IMG/VR virus record: IMGVR_UViG_2751185968_000016 | Source of the DNA: a virus | Lineage: Duplodnaviria; Heunggongvirae; Uroviricota; Caudoviricetes | DNA: 7,979 nt | Direction: 5' to 3' (one strand) | Shown here: positions 1,421-6,128 of the stretch, in pieces | Numbering within the stretch: the stretch's first letter is position 1 | Layout: each line of letters begins with the position of its first letter | Translations under genes and position numbers: made by a program | Notes under the pieces: generated by a model | Databases searched by the model: none | What the model was told of the DNA's origin: nothing | What the model saw: the letters and a program-made list of their open reading frames with translations, nothing else

Positions 1421-3892
1421 TTAAAAATCAGCCTGATTCGGGATCAGTTTTTGCCAGATAACTGAAACGTATTTTGCCTGGTAACGGGCGTCATCAAGTG
1501 CATTATGGCGCTCACCTTCGAATGGAATAGCCGTTCTGGCATCGAAGTCTATGGCTTTCCCCAGCTCAACGATTGTGCGTACATCGCGATCGTTGTAGTA
1601 ACGCCACGGGCAGGGGATCCCCTGCCGTTCGTATGAACGGCGCAAAATCGTGTTGTCGAAGTTGGCTCCATTTCCCCAGACCTGAACAAAAAATTCACCG
1701 GAGTTTTCGTCGATAAATTCCCGCAATTGTAACAGTGCATCATCTAACGGGATTTCATCGGTCATAATGGCAGACTGCGCTTCACGTGATTGCTTCAGCC
1801 ACCTTTTAATGACGTCACGATCAATGACTCCGCCAGCAGTTTCCAGATCGATAGTCTTACTAAATTCCGGTCCCATATCTCCGGTTTGCGGATCGAAAAA
1901 TATTGCACCTATTGAGATAATCGGGGCATCAGGATTTTTTCCCATGGTTTCAAGGTCGATCATTAGATGGTCACACGTCCTGCTGGTGGATGTGATAACG
2001 TGATGACCGTTCATCGTAATTAAGGGATCTGCCGTCTCGCCAGTTTCACTATCGCTGGCGTGATCCTGAGCGCTACCAGCATTCTCCTTGTGTGGATGTT
2101 CAGCGCCTTCCATTTCCTTCGGATCATTTTCCTGAACTTCAACCTGATTCTCTTCATCGAATGTTTCCTGGTATGTTGCGTCACCCATCACCGCGCCACA
2201 ATCAGGGCAGTTGCCGCCACCGCTTTGACCGCAGGCGGTGCAGACTTTTTCCGGTTCCTGTTGCGCTACTGGCTCAGGTTGTTTCGTTTCTGGCTCGTTT
2301 TGTTGCGTATTTGGGCTGTTTTGTTCCGCTTTCTGGTCGTTCTGTTCCGATTCTTGCTGGTTCTGGTTTACAGAATCGCGGGTTTCAATCCCCTTTACCC
2401 ATTTCGGATCATTCGGGTCGCTAATCCCTGCAACAAATTCTCCGCGAGAGGCAGCAAGCAACTTATCGGCGTCAGGCTGGCTGATATTGGCTGCCTGCAT
2501 AATTTTGTTTACTTCGTCAGCGGTAACTTTTACCGGCTCTGGTTGTGCGGTCGTGTCAGATGCACCAGTATTTTGTTGTGAACCTGAGTACGTGCCGTTT
2601 TTACGTGCGAAGTATTCCTCTTTTGTGATTTCCGTAGCTCCCAAGGCTAGTGCTTTTTCCAGACCAGAAAGTTTGTTTGCGCGACCGTATTTTTCGCCAT
2701 CCTTGTCGGTGAAGAGGAAGTAGAACGGCCCCTCACGCTCTACAGATGGTTCGACTTCCACTTTGCATTCGGTTTTTTCGTTGCCCGGAATTGCCGTTTC
2801 CACTGCATCAGTTTCTGGTACTGGCGACGAGAGAGTATCAGTTGCGCTCTGATTTCTTCCTTCATCTTCAAACACGCCCTTTGTAGTCAGGTATTCAGTA
2901 ATGTATTTGTTCAGTGCCACAGGGTCTTTGTGAATGTCGATCGGACGTTCACGGACAAGGCCAAAAATAGTCTGGCGGTCGTAGCGAAGGGCATCAGGCT
3001 GTTTGCGCATTGATGCCGAGATACGCTTCCAGTCTTCGCGGTCGTTGTCGATAACTTCATTTTTTGCCCAGCGATGGATGCTGCCGTCAATGTTTCCGGC
3101 ATCCACATCACCAGGCCAGAGAGCGTAGGCCAGTTCGTCATCCAGTGTTTTCCATGTCTGCTTGTATTCGCGATGAATGGCAGCAATGACCGGGCTGATT
3201 TTTCCTGTTGAATTTTCACTGTGCTGTTGATTGGTTCTGGCGCGGGCGAGATCAACAACAGACGTGTATTTTCCGGTTTCCTTGCGTTCACCTTCGCGAC
3301 GTTTTTTCCAGATGCGCATCTCTGCCTGAATTTCGGGCCATTTGGCACCAGGCTTACATTTATGCTTAACCCACCCGATGGCATGCAGCTTAAGCTCCGG
3401 ATACATGGCGTTAACTTCTGGCATTTTCATCAACGCTTCAACGATATGTCCGTCGAATGTTGCCATGTCTTCCTGCAACAATTCCTGTGCGCTAATAACC
3501 ATATCAACGGTGATGTTTTCACATGTGTCGAACTTAACCATGACAGCGTTCTGTACTTCAGGGGCCAGCTTGTCAAAAGTGACGTTCATCGGATCGGATT
3601 CAGTCTCAACCGGGACAAAGGAAGCAGACTCCTCATCCCAGCGGTTTTCCTGCATATATTCAGCATCCCAGGAATCGAGGGCAGGGCGGGGTATACCGGG
3701 TTTATCCTCGCAGACAAGAAATTTATAAGCGCAGTCCTGAGCAGCCGGATAATGCTCCAGGAATTGCCAGTGAAATTTTGCGCGGGCGCGACGTTCATCA
3801 CCGGCTTCAATGGCTGTGGCTACAGCGACGGCACCTTCTTCCTTTATTGCCTGTTCGTCCGGAATGGCGGCGCAAATAAAGACTTTACTCAT
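1421..3892 (-). CDS. Large multidomain exonuclease-domain protein, 823 aa: YdfE-like N-terminal region, Q/E/N/P heptad linker, 4-Cys zinc ribbon, C-terminal DEDDh (DnaQ/RNase T-like) 3'-5' exonuclease
   Basis: Long ORF with GAGGT Shine-Dalgarno 7 nt upstream of the ATG at 3890-3892. C-terminal domain (residues ~640-815, nt ~1448-1975) has Exo I HLMIDLETMG, Exo II VWGNGANFDNTIL and Exo III HNALDDARYQAKY (H-x4-D), the DEDDh signature. Zinc ribbon CTACGQSGGGNCPDCG at residues 551-566 (nt 2195-2242). N-terminal ~330 residues resemble the K-12 Qin YdfE fragment as I recall it. The central segment KLLAASRGEFVAGISDPNDPKWVKGIETRD...CPDCGAVMGDATYQETFDEE resembles, from memory, the region just before the nuclease domain of Rac RecE. 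Confidence 0.85.
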   Translation of the reverse strand: MSKVFICAAIPDEQAIKEEGAVAVATAIEAGDERRARAKFHWQFLEHYPAAQDCAYKFLVCEDKPGIPRPALDSWDAEYMQENRWDEESASFVPVETESDPMNVTFDKLAPEVQNAVMVKFDTCENITVDMVISAQELLQEDMATFDGHIVEALMKMPEVNAMYPELKLHAIGWVKHKCKPGAKWPEIQAEMRIWKKRREGERKETGKYTSVVDLARARTNQQHSENSTGKISPVIAAIHREYKQTWKTLDDELAYALWPGDVDAGNIDGSIHRWAKNEVIDNDREDWKRISASMRKQPDALRYDRQTIFGLVRERPIDIHKDPVALNKYITEYLTTKGVFEDEGRNQSATDTLSSPVPETDAVETAIPGNEKTECKVEVEPSVEREGPFYFLFTDKDGEKYGRANKLSGLEKALALGATEITKEEYFARKNGTYSGSQQNTGASDTTAQPEPVKVTADEVNKIMQAANISQPDADKLLAASRGEFVAGISDPNDPKWVKGIETRDSVNQNQQESEQNDQKAEQNSPNTQQNEPETKQPEPVAQQEPEKVCTACGQSGGGNCPDCGAVMGDATYQETFDEENQVEVQENDPKEMEGAEHPHKENAGSAQDHASDSETGETADPLITMNGHHVITSTSRTCDHLMIDLETMGKNPDAPIISIGAIFFDPQTGDMGPEFSKTIDLETAGGVIDRDVIKRWLKQSREAQSAIMTDEIPLDDALLQLREFIDENSGEFFVQVWGNGANFDNTILRRSYERQGIPCPWRYYNDRDVRTIVELGKAIDFDARTAIPFEGERHNALDDARYQAKYVSVIWQKLIPNQADF

Positions 3893-4361: not shown

Positions 4362-4526
4362 TATCGCGTCCTCAACAATGAATTTTGTGATGCGGTGCCT
4401 GGTGCCTCCAGGTGACGTTAACCAGTTAACAATTAACGCCGGATACAGAGAATCCACCCATAACACTGTTTTTGGTTTTAACTGTTCCGCGTGCGCTCAG
4501 CCGCATTCACCACATCACAAAATTCA

Positions 4527-4573
4527 CTTTAAAAAGGGCGGCAGAGCAGTCACGGAGTAAAACTGATACCGCC
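4527..4573 (-). terminator. Rho-independent terminator forming the DicF 3' end
   Basis: GC-rich imperfect stem (GGCGG...CUG/CAG...CCGCC within the DicF 3' half) followed by a U-tract (minus-strand TTTTT at plus 4531-4535). Confidence 0.5.
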
Positions 4574-4588
4574 AAACGTCACCAGAAA
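4536..4588 (-). ncRNA. dicF: DicF small regulatory RNA (Hfq-dependent antisense regulator of ftsZ and other targets)
   Basis: Reverse complement of 4536-4588 reads TTTCTGGTGACGTTTGGCGGTATCAGTTTTACTCCGTGACTGCTCTGCCGCCC, which matches the 53-nt DicF sequence as I remember it. It is followed on the minus strand by a TTTTTAAAG U-tract and lies between the ydfC-like and dicB genes. Confidence 0.85.
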
Positions 4589-4929
4589 ATTGATAACAGA
4601 GGGCGTTGCAGCGGGGTTGTCACTTAAGCGTATGGTCAACCTGACAACCCGGTGTCCTCAACGGTGGAAGGAATAACCCCGCCATACTTACCGCCGCGCC
4701 ATTTCGCGGATTGCCACAACCGGAAGCGCACGGTCGACGAAAATTTAACGACAGGCTATCTATGAACCAGCTACCTCGCCGTGCGCTTTCGCGTTATGGT
4801 CTGACTTTTCAGGGAAATATCCTTTCAGTAAACTGTCAGTGCCGGATGCTCACCCGTGTCCGGCGCACGCACTCCACCTCACCCGTGGAGAACTCCTTAA
4901 TTACCAACCTTAGCTTCGTTGGTTAGCTA

Positions 4930-5148
4930 TTAACGCGGGTATGTAATCATTCTGGCAATGCTTAATGCCGCTGCTTTTTCCAGATTAGTGATATCCTGCT
5001 CCAGAGCGGACAGATTTTCAGCCTGCTTAGCCCTGGCTTCATTGGCCCATTTCAGATCCTGCGCTGCATTAATTTTCTGGTGCATCCACTCATAAAGTTC
5101 ATCATCGGTATAGTCTGGCGCGATGATGACGGGTTCTCGTTTCTGCAT
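4930..5148 (-). CDS. ydfC: YdfC-like small protein, 72 aa, function unknown
   Basis: Track ORF with GAGGAA Shine-Dalgarno upstream of the ATG at 5146-5148. Its size and position (third small ORF after the repressor, upstream of DicF) match Qin ydfC. Predicted helical and charged. Confidence 0.65.
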   Translation of the reverse strand: MQKREPVIIAPDYTDDELYEWMHQKINAAQDLKWANEARAKQAENLSALEQDITNLEKAAALSIARMITYPR

Positions 5149-5463: not shown

Positions 5464-5539
5464 GCTGACCTCATTTCCCCTTAACGCCGGGGTAGCGGAA
5501 CTGTTTGCGGAGAACACCGTGCGGTGTGTTGATGGAGGT

Positions 5540-5568
5540 AATTTAGTTTTCTCATTATTTTTCGTCAA
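5540..5568 (-). promoter_or_regulatory. Candidate sigma70 promoter of the leftward ydfA-dicF-dicB operon (pL analogue)
   Basis: On the minus strand: -35 TTGACG (plus 5563-5568), 17-nt spacer, -10 TAAATT (plus 5540-5545). Flanked by operator-like inverted repeats. Confidence 0.35.
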
Positions 5569-5655: not shown

Positions 5656-6063
5656 TTATTGATGCTTGTTGCGTTTGCGAGCCTCTAATAGCTCGGTGAA
5701 CAGGCGATTAAAATTCTCAACGCGGGCGCGGAGTTCGCTGAGTTGTGCTTGTTGCTCTGATTTAGGAAGTGCGCGATACAAACGCAGCATCTCTAACTCA
5801 TCTTCCGATAAGTCTAGGGTACTATCGAGTGAAACAGGGGGAGCTGGTGTTTTGTCCTCGTCGCCAAACAGTATCCAGGTTGGTGAACATTGCAATACCT
5901 CGGCGAGGCGATGCAAATTTTGCCCGCGCGGGGCTGTATGGTCACTTTCCCATAATGAAATTGATGAGCCAGATACGCCAGCAGCTTTGCTTAAACCGTT
6001 TTGACTTAAGCCTACCTGCTTACGTCTTTCTCTAATGCGTTGACCTAAAGTTTTCTCGTTCAT
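5656..6063 (-). CDS. dicA: DicA-like XRE-family HTH repressor (CI/C2 analogue), 135 aa
   Basis: Internal start MNEKTLGQRIRERRKQVGLSQNGLSKAAGVSGSSISLWE... gives 135 aa, the DicA length. Classic HTH_XRE pattern and a conserved LQCSPTWILFGDED segment. Divergent from the Cro-like gene. The track's 152-aa form is an upstream extension. Confidence 0.8.
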   Translation of the reverse strand: MNEKTLGQRIRERRKQVGLSQNGLSKAAGVSGSSISLWESDHTAPRGQNLHRLAEVLQCSPTWILFGDEDKTPAPPVSLDSTLDLSEDELEMLRLYRALPKSEQQAQLSELRARVENFNRLFTELLEARKRNKHQ

Positions 6064-6084
6064 ATTTAGATATCTTAATAATCC

Positions 6085-6128
6085 TTGACTTGAGATTCCT
6101 TGAGTGATTAGCATTGAGAAAACTCAAT
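6085..6128 (+). promoter_or_regulatory. Candidate rightward promoter (pR analogue) with overlapping operator
   Basis: -35 TTGACT (6085-6090), 18-nt spacer, -10 TAGCAT (6109-6114). Inverted repeat TTGAGAAAACTCAA (6114-6127) lies immediately downstream. Further TTGAG half-sites at 6090-6094 and 6100-6104. Confidence 0.4.

Follow-up and report, generated by a model that had tools for sequence, protein, structure and literature searches.

DicF is among the first bacterial regulatory RNAs to have been described, and its 190-nucleotide (nt) form, known from gels since 1990, has been regarded as a precursor. Here, we analyzed the region preceding dicF in a 7,979-nt stretch of phage DNA (IMG/VR record IMGVR_UViG_2751185968_000016, referred to as the window), the minus strand of which is the early-left operon of a Qin-type prophage. 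The element under study is the 341-base untranslated spacer at positions 4589 to 4929, between a ydfC-like gene and DicF; coordinates are those of the window, and features lie on its minus strand, unless another record or strand is named. The 5′ 137 nt of the long DicF made from this region appear to hold a discrete, covarying, and probably pseudoknotted RNA domain of 116 nt that is absent from Rfam 15.

The closest described system is the dicBF locus of Escherichia coli K-12, which is the same locus at 98% identity (Faubladier et al. 1990; Ragunathan et al. 2023, PMC10448788). In the latter paper, which confirms the earlier one, a stable 190-nt DicF is reported beside a 53-nt form, and both accumulate in stationary phase. 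The 190-nt form owes its 5′ end to an RNase III cut between +813 and +814 of the transcript from dicBp, and the 53-nt form owes its own to RNase E; the longer RNA builds up upon RNase E inactivation and is gone without RNase III. The paper also reports both terminated and read-through transcripts for the DicF locus and induction of dicBp by the Rem antirepressor. The 190-nt RNA is treated as a processing form of DicF, and in the accessible text no secondary structure, conservation, or occurrence outside dicBF is described (the terms “secondary structure” and “stem” appear 0 times).

The window agrees closely with K-12. A 397-nt query aligned end to end with the K-12 sequence at 98% identity, and the order ydfA-ydfB-ydfC-gap-dicF-dicB-ydfD is that of K-12. 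The gap had been taken to be longer than its K-12 counterpart (about 260 nt), which proved to be mistaken: in the K-12 record (NC_000913.3), 340 nt separate the end of ydfC (1649041) from the start of dicF (1649382). We are nearly certain that the spacer is the already known DicF precursor, i.e., the untranslated ydfC-dicF leader. Both the 5′ end that RNase III gives K-12 long DicF and its RNase E site map inside it, with the 116-nt domain forming the 5′ part of the long RNA. The earlier suggestion that the spacer serves as the substrate of these two RNases is, accordingly, in line with the published K-12 work (PMC10448788) and represents established knowledge.

A second related entry is the “dicF-like region” of P1 (AF234172, 68791 to 68892), downstream of Pban. 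It is a similarity note only, and it overlaps the 3′ half of the domain (helix P3 and one pseudoknot strand) plus a terminator, the hairpin of P1 being below the Rfam DicF threshold. Judged from sequence comparison, what P1 and Qin share is the domain and not DicF. We found no description of the domain in the literature searched, outside which lay Faubladier and Bouché 1994 and the P1 genome paper, and queries with sequence strings of the element retrieved unrelated primer matches only.

RESULTS

The domain spans positions 4605 to 4720 and scores 156 bits with covariance model R1. Its fold was derived by comparison of homologues. Helix P0 (4720-4713/4612-4605) closes the domain, inside which lie hairpin P1 (4709-4705/4698-4694), an arm, P2 (4693-4690/4653-4650), that bears hairpin P2a (4681-4662), which has a pyrimidine-rich loop on a variable stem, and helix P3 (4649-4642/4622-4615). 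P3 corresponds to the 9-bp stem GGGTTGTCA/TGACAACCC (4650-4642/4622-4614), which the original prediction had listed among the inverted repeats of the leader. The repeats are real, but the hairpins are not equivalent, this stem being one helix of a larger multi-helix fold. Many unpaired bases of the domain are conserved as well.

Covariation across homologues, named earlier as a way to check the structure, is present for this domain. When 31 distinct sequences were aligned with MAFFT, 95.0% of the cells were paired, versus 25 to 55% when the partners were slid, and 12 pairs were changed on both sides, versus 4.6 in shuffles (0/500). An alignment fitted to the model, with 38 sequences including more divergent members, gave 96.9% of paired cells and changes on both sides for 16 of the 31 pairs, versus 4.9 in shuffles (0/500). 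These compensatory changes are spread over copies from E. coli, P1, Citrobacter, Erwinia, Izhakiella, and others. The P3 stem occurs in five versions, each with its matching complement (GGGUUGUCA, GAGUUGCCA, GGGUAACCA, GAGCUACCA, and GGAUCACCA); P0 is wholly different in the divergent copy L264 (UUGCG(UG)CUGU/ACAGCGCAA), and P1 reads CCGCA/UGCGG in copy L255. P2a is a hairpin in nearly all of 27 distinct variants despite more than 12 unrelated stem sequences, and its loop stays pyrimidine-rich (UUCCUU, CUCCUU, and UCCUCCA). G.U cells exceed A.C cells (48 versus 22), which favors the sense strand. Taken together, these data make it very likely that the fold is real.

The domain corresponds to no family in Rfam. 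None of the 4227 covariance models of Rfam 15 matched within 4589 to 4929, whether the gathering score was applied or E values as high as 10 were allowed. With E as high as 1, the domain of the divergent copy L243 likewise gave no match, and none was obtained over the domain at the gathering score in the other domain-bearing loci. ARAGORN detected no tRNA- or tmRNA-like gene in the window, and the four-arm topology is only superficially cloverleaf-like. A tRNA-like element or RNase P substrate was discarded on the ARAGORN result and on inspection by eye, in which no consistent NCCA was seen after P0.

A likely pseudoknot of 6 bp joins GUAUGG (4682-4687), in the internal loop of the P2 arm, with CCAUAC (4635-4630), in the 19-nt loop of P3. 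It reads GCAUGG/CCAUGC in the P1 lineage and, separately, in a Qin-type copy (L315) that was found in a later scan, so that one pair covaries from U:A to C:G. G.U intermediates occur in F1055 and in copies L043 and L205. Scans in which bases were excluded retrieved one wobble-compatible variant and two uncompensated single variants; that only three true members were obtained suggests strong conservation of the loop bases. A second pseudoknot, between UCCU of the P2a loop and a downstream AGGA, was considered and dropped, as it is not conserved in P1, P7, and Erwinia (by eye).

The 5′ border of the domain overlaps a long interrupted hairpin of about 22 bp (4714-4799), which folds alone at −37.4 kcal/mol (z = −4.05) and is retained by RNAalifold. 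Its 10-bp stem (4788-4779/4733-4724) is the perfect repeat AAGCGCACGG/CCGTGCGCTT, the strongest stem of the spacer and one absent from the original prediction, and its lower stem pairs CCAUAAC (4799-4793) with GGUUGUGG (4721-4714). The latter strand doubles as the 5′ arm of P0. The loop has been swapped for unrelated sequence between lineages, with the stem retained. We infer that this hairpin is the RNase III substrate, because the published RNase III-made 5′ end maps to its 3′ arm. A count of 190 nt upstream from the 3′ end of DicF leads to 4725, and +814 counted from the K-12 promoter (TTGACC-17-TAATCT) leads to the equivalent of 4720 to 4725. By this arithmetic, the 5′ end of long DicF lies at 4720 to 4725, 0 to 6 nt before the first base of P0. 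The in vivo dependence on RNase III and RNase E was shown in K-12 (PMC10448788).

On the 3′ side, the domain is followed by a 16-nt AU-rich linker, GCCCUCUGUUAUCAAU (4589-4604), and by the 53-nt DicF small RNA (sRNA) with its intrinsic terminator hairpin (4536-4588). DicF is identical in sequence to K-12 dicF, its U tract runs on to about 4531, and it matches Rfam RF00039 at 4536 to 4587 with 76.7 bits (gathering score, 48); nothing in 4589 to 4929 matches this family. Long DicF is thus composed of the 116-nt domain, the linker, and DicF. The RNase E site AAU/UUUCUGG (slash at the cut, between 4589 and 4588) is placed from the 5′ end of 53-nt DicF in the K-12 record and its published RNase E dependence. 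In several folds, this cut falls in the loop of a predicted hairpin between GUUAUCA of the linker (4597-4591) and UGGUGAC (4584-4578), the 5′ seed of DicF, so that in the long form the seed would be masked until RNase E has cut.

These positions suggest a sequence of events. Before RNase III acts, the strand GGUUGUG(G) would be paired within the precursor hairpin; cleavage in the 3′ arm of the 4714-4799 hairpin would create the 5′ end of the 190-nt RNA and free this strand, which could then close P0. We regard such a toggle of the strand as possible, at somewhat less than an even chance. The compact domain would leave only a short 5′-monophosphate tail and the linker exposed, a putative mechanism that would fix the RNase E site and explain the stability of the 190-nt RNA. 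RNase E, whose cleavage was shown in K-12, would then cut in the AU-rich linker and release the 53-nt DicF. The two cuts together would also release a structured by-product of 137 nt.

We also observed that the 5′ side of the long hairpin (CAUAACGCGAAAGCGC, 4788-4796) resembles the junction plus P1 hairpin (CAAUCCGCGAAAUGGCGC, 4705-4712). The likeness may reflect an old duplication, and it explains recombinant deletion variants in which module A is joined directly to P1 (L017, 1620-1756; L145, 1442-1578; L065, 5103-5345). In these natural variants, the join lies at the short repeat AACGCGAAA/CCGCGAAA, and neither the long RNase III hairpin nor the P0 5′ arm is left.

The distribution of the domain was determined by BLAST against phage, plasmid, and E. 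coli collections and by pattern scans for further copies. A segment equivalent to about 4597 to 4720 recurs without ydfC in phage cdtI, Stx2c phages, Ayreon, 2H10, Salmonella phage F1055, a phage record labeled Actinobacillus (pPE4), and 511 plasmid records of the P1/P7 type. The scans extended this range to E. albertii, E. ruysiae, Shigella, Citrobacter, Trabulsiella, Serratia symbiotica, Erwinia tracheiphila, and Izhakiella. Among complete E. coli genomes, 4312 of 5426 (79%) carry the domain, in up to 8 copies each. It lies in early-left operons in cdtI, Ayreon (about 285 nt after the annotated pL), F1055, and pPE4, and 30 to 45 nt downstream of the C1-controlled Pban promoter in P1/P7. The window has a single copy, and each plasmid record has one place among the matches listed. 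No consistent protein-coding neighbor was found across the compared loci.

Conservation of the domain is wider than that of DicF. The hairpins found after the domain in cdtI, F1055, pPE4, P1/P7, Citrobacter, Erwinia, Serratia, Izhakiella, and Trabulsiella all fall below the Rfam DicF threshold. Homology between lineages starts and ends exactly at the complementary strands GUUGUGG...CCACAAC of P0, i.e., the borders of the domain are recombination junctions. In DicF loci lacking the domain, P0 is kept as a small hairpin, e.g., GUUGUGGC-AAUCA-GCUACAAC in L175, a natural allele without the equivalent of 4613 to 4712, and the N-encoding phage phiSTEC1589 has the distal spacer part and a DicF-type hairpin without the domain segment. 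L243 and L264 carry divergent domain copies in an ORF-free stretch of about 1 kb (ORF, open reading frame), with no terminator for about 330 nt.

Several features of these loci were noted in passing. The stretch in L243 (4541-5546) and L264 (around 4999-5137) contains repeated CACACAAC-type motifs and follows a PHROG-536 “transcriptional regulator” gene and an Ead/Ea22-like gene, with a strong terminator at about 5514 to 5546. In F1055, Erwinia, Serratia, Izhakiella, and Trabulsiella (L004, 2620-2710; L155, L140, L157, and L153), the terminator-type hairpin after the domain has a 40- to 50-nt loop with a strong Shine-Dalgarno sequence and a start codon, and the ORF reads through the 3′ stem arm, an arrangement that could provide translation-coupled control of termination. 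The pPE4 record (L005; PP818812.1, Actinobacillus phage vB_Apl-pPE4) has an E. coli-type dicA/DicF-like/kil/exonuclease VIII region with a tandem duplication (2620-2760) of the unit from the 3′ arm of P0 through the DicF-like hairpin, and its host label looks doubtful. Metagenome-assembled genomes labeled Veillonella parvula, Collinsella sp., and Bacillota bacterium (L148, L152, and L146) include contigs that, along the stretch compared, match E. coli Qin-type or P1 sequences, probably through binning contamination. In Aeromonas phage AP1 (H80, MT713136.1), 62 nt at 249906 to 249967, near the end of the 254-kb record, are 100% identical to DicF and its 5′ flank.

The remaining inverted repeats were also verified. 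All those named before were found on the minus strand, at most 1 nt away from the positions assigned to them: ACCAAC/GTTGGT (4923-4918/4908-4903), CTCCAC/GTGGAG (4890-4885/4877-4872), and GCCGG/CCGGC (4864-4860/4845-4841). The region 4588 to 4929 holds sixteen 6-mer stems, versus 4.3 ± 2.5 in shuffles, and three 9-mer stems, versus 0.04. The folding check proposed earlier turned out favorable in part: the 397-nt stretch folds better than its shuffles (z = −2.95), but the opposite strand reaches an equal value, and the z-score alone cannot choose the strand. The repeats form distal hairpins that are sequence invariant, and comparison gives no covariation evidence for or against them. H1 (ACCAAC/GUUGGU, 4903-4923) lies directly 3′ of the ydfC stop and is present in the minimum-free-energy fold; alignment A3 covers its 3′ arm only. 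Every pair of H2 (CUCCAC/GUGGAG, 4872-4890) is invariant in 11 homologues, the stem of H3 (GCCGGA/UCCGGC, 4841-4864) does not vary in sequence, and the imperfect H4 (CUGAC...GUCAG, 4801-4839) was dropped from the RNAalifold consensus. One fold contained a long-range duplex of GCGUGCGC (about 4868-4861) with a region 3′ of DicF (about 4495-4486), which shows no covariation and competes with H3.

As had been predicted, the spacer contains no convincing ORF. A 71-amino-acid (aa) antisense ORF stays open in close relatives; in diverged homologues, both this and a 31-aa sense ORF break or shift frame. Protein coding was rejected on these grounds and on indels between homologues that are not multiples of three; the length of the P2a region differs by 1 to 5 nt among copies, which also counts against coding. 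A Shine-Dalgarno-like UAAGGAG (4893-4899) is followed by no conserved ORF, and the only start near it, the GUG of a 10-codon ORF, is GUC in L006 and therefore unconserved.

Along the minus strand, a DicA-like repressor (5656-6114) and a promoter-like site (5568-5540) are followed by the ydfA-, ydfB-, and ydfC-like genes, the spacer, DicF, dicB, ydfD, and an exonuclease gene. The ydfC-like gene in the ORF list (4930-5148, 72 aa) matches PHROG 1744 (E = 1e-39), is annotated ydfC in matching E. coli genomes, and ends with the stop TAA (4932-4930), next to which lies TAG. The exonuclease gene 3′ of ydfD is intact (1421-3892, 823 aa, full-length match to PHROG 2082), and its K-12 counterpart, in the ydfE region, is an IS2-interrupted pseudogene. 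In the DicF-dicB interval, no promoter-like site was found, and positions 4400 to 4534 gave a weak, subthreshold match to the Salmonella sRNA candidate STnc100 (20.6 bits, with the gathering score set at 47; E = 0.037; 3′-truncated). Among other RNA genes of the compared loci, C4 antisense RNA (68.4 bits) and isrK (60 bits) lie beside the antirepressor gene of phage cdtI (L003, 40-228, minus strand), and RalA, the RalR antitoxin RNA (225 bits), lies at 11213 to 11391 of L162 (minus strand).

Antitermination systems were searched for separately. PHROGs revealed no N-like product among the ORFs of the window, and boxA, the nut element that was searched for systematically, had no match inside the operon and two elsewhere, at chance level. 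Lambda-type N/nut antitermination found no support, given the lack of N among the window ORFs and of any tblastn match with two N types in 80 carrier loci. The notion that the domain replaces N is only weakly supported: with the two N types searched, none of the 80 carrier loci and two domain-less loci have N, but most domain-less loci lack it as well. Homology to HK022 put was likewise rejected: R1 gave no match in the HK022 immunity region with default filters, and with filters off the best was 8.9 bits over 41 AT-rich nt.

DISCUSSION

We conclude, with modest confidence, that the locus as a whole is best explained as the known DicF precursor in modular form, with a self-contained 116-nt RNA domain. 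It is fairly probable that this domain has a function of its own beyond processing, because it is more widely conserved than DicF, has its borders at recombination junctions, keeps conserved unpaired bases, and occurs without DicF; such a function would be, e.g., the binding of a host or phage factor or of the transcribing polymerase. The domain-less DicF loci, together with the L243 and L264 copies that have no terminator for about 330 nt, also point to more than a processing aid. Any one specific molecular function is nonetheless improbable. In its stronger form, the argument would make the domain a new class of autonomous phage RNA, a folded module in the early transcripts of lambdoid and P1-type plasmid prophages. 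We entertain this only tentatively, and with the same reserve that it would act via RNA polymerase or a host factor, or via its pyrimidine-rich loop on ribosome-binding sites, DicF-type hairpins being mere variable 3′ companions.

Several points weigh against this explanation. The published blots probed DicF only. The exact base cut by RNase III is unreadable in the published figure, and its position depends on arithmetic. The domain is missing from about 30 of 134 DicF loci and has been lost repeatedly; it is thus dispensable for making DicF and may simply have hitchhiked. Most homologues were retrieved by means of fixed motifs from the P3 loop and one strand of the pseudoknot, so that the invariance of these bases is partly imposed, a bias only partly corrected by BLAST matches and the excluded-base scans, and alignment A4 was fitted to the model. 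The pseudoknot draws on one covarying pair in two backgrounds plus wobble intermediates, and three single copies (L076, L210, and L220) have uncompensated mismatches in it. For the strand toggle there is no compensatory change, and covariation speaks neither for nor against it. Finally, the minimum-free-energy fold of the 190-nt RNA of the window pairs the 5′ half of the domain with the 3′ arm of DicF. In support of the fold, however, when only P2 and P3 are enforced, the other helices and the DicF terminator appear at 2 to 6 kcal/mol from the minimum, with the pseudoknot uncounted, and in cdtI and F1055 the unconstrained fold already has most of the domain helices.

Two rival explanations give the domain a particular task. 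One is that it is an autonomous trans-acting RNA, in the 190-nt or 137-nt form, which would act on mRNAs via the P2a loop or sequester a protein. In its favor, the domain is flanked almost exactly by the two RNase sites, the 190-nt RNA is stable and builds up in stationary phase, and the anti-Shine-Dalgarno-like P2a loop retains a YUCCUY-like composition on a freely changing stem; conservation extends to many unpaired bases, and the domain is conserved beyond DicF and can occur without an adjacent terminator hairpin. However, it has no known target or partner, its loop motif is loose (GGAGUCUGA in L264), the 137-nt species is unreported, and there is no consistent protein-coding neighbor. We consider this unlikely, a judgment that applies to the specific trans-acting form, which overlaps the function of its own allowed for in the modular explanation. 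Somewhat less probable still is a cis-acting processive antiterminator resembling HK022 put, in which the nascent RNA would bind RNA polymerase and allow read-through of the DicF-type and later terminators, by which dicB, the exonuclease, or P1 ban would be expressed without N. Such a role fits the invariable sense orientation in repressor-controlled early operons (Pban in P1/P7; pL in Ayreon), an intrinsic terminator that usually lies 11 to 31 nt after the domain and must be read through, the lack of a promoter-like site between DicF and dicB along with the reported terminated and read-through transcripts, and the independence of the domain from the identity of linker and terminator. It also fits the count of N genes: among the 80 carrier loci for which 2.5 kb or more lay upstream, an N of the lambda or phiSTEC1589 type was found in none, and N-encoding phiSTEC1589 lacks the domain. 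But that search covered these two types of N only, and 23 of 25 domain-less DicF loci with at least 2.5 kb upstream have no detectable N either, which argues against a strict substitute. Furthermore, the domain has no sequence or structure likeness to put (R1 reached 8.9 bits at best in the HK022 immunity region), forms a four-helix junction with a pseudoknot instead of two stem-loops, and is present as one copy per element with no L/R pair; L243 and L264 lack a terminator in the roughly 330 nt that follow it, and its precise excision by RNases in Qin suggests a discrete RNA product.

The other two rivals fare worse. The spacer had also been suggested to hold a further small RNA or an attenuator, of which the first part finds a counterpart in the discrete covarying domain at 4605 to 4720 and the second does not, there being no conserved alternative pairing between domain and terminator. 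A riboswitch-like element, in which a ligand or factor would decide on the formation of the DicF terminator, is very improbable. A junction with a pseudoknot, conserved unpaired bases, and a closing helix, usually with a terminator next to it, does recall an aptamer with its platform, and the minimum-free-energy fold of the window pairs GGCGGUA of the domain with the 3′ arm of the terminator. However, this alternative is absent in cdtI and F1055, and the terminator of P1 is unrelated; no mutually exclusive pairing of P0 or any other domain strand with the highly variable downstream hairpins is conserved, L243 and L264 have no adjacent terminator, and no Rfam riboswitch matched at E up to 10. 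Least credible is a mere spacer, whose hairpins arose by chance or hitchhiking or which encodes a small protein or a site acting in DNA, and for the 4605-4720 domain this is largely refuted. The lack of covariation in the distal hairpins, the equal folding z-scores of the two strands, the loss of the domain in several lineages, and the antisense ORF of 71 aa that is open in close relatives would agree with it; the compensatory changes in 16 of 31 pairs, the excess of G.U on the sense strand, the ORFs that break in diverged copies, the 1- to 5-nt length differences in P2a, and the RNase sites mapped experimentally in K-12 would not.

Should the 137 nt that set long DicF apart prove to be a conserved, pseudoknotted domain, the long form or the released fragment probably has an overlooked role, and, if the autonomous reading is true, the 190-nt “intermediate” of K-12 would itself be a functional RNA. 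About four in five E. coli genomes carry the domain, often more than once, and it also occurs in Shiga toxin and cdt phages and in the leader of the P1 ban operon. It bears on how the early operons of prophages get past their own terminators without N, on the dosage of toxic DicF and DicB, and on what P1 expresses first upon derepression. Even if it only shapes processing, it would represent an unusually elaborate structure-guided maturation of an sRNA and a candidate for a new Rfam family.

Three known classes of RNA share features with the domain. The RNA-only processive antiterminators putL and putR of HK022 are likewise cis-encoded, structured, and situated upstream of terminators in lambdoid early operons without N (PMC9378689), but they are about 70 nt in length, with two stem-loops and two copies (L and R), versus 116 nt, helices P0 to P3 plus a pseudoknot, and one copy for the domain. 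Transcription-terminating riboswitches likewise have a closing helix, a multi-helix junction, a pseudoknot, conserved unpaired bases, and a terminator just 3′. An aptamer-like conserved domain is found here, with loop conservation partly imposed by the way homologues were collected. In contrast to those riboswitches, the domain has no conserved antiterminator alternative, its downstream hairpins being unrelated between lineages and no exclusion between antiterminator and terminator being conserved; its “platform” is hypervariable, and it has no known ligand and no Rfam match. In RNase E-matured 3′-untranslated-region sRNAs (MicL, and the entry for DicF; PMC9438474), stable structures likewise flank a single-stranded AU-rich RNase E site, and an Hfq-type sRNA ending in a terminator is likewise released. 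The guides in those RNAs are simple stem-loops, whereas the domain is far more elaborate, is more widely conserved than the sRNA after it, and is dispensable at natural DicF loci.

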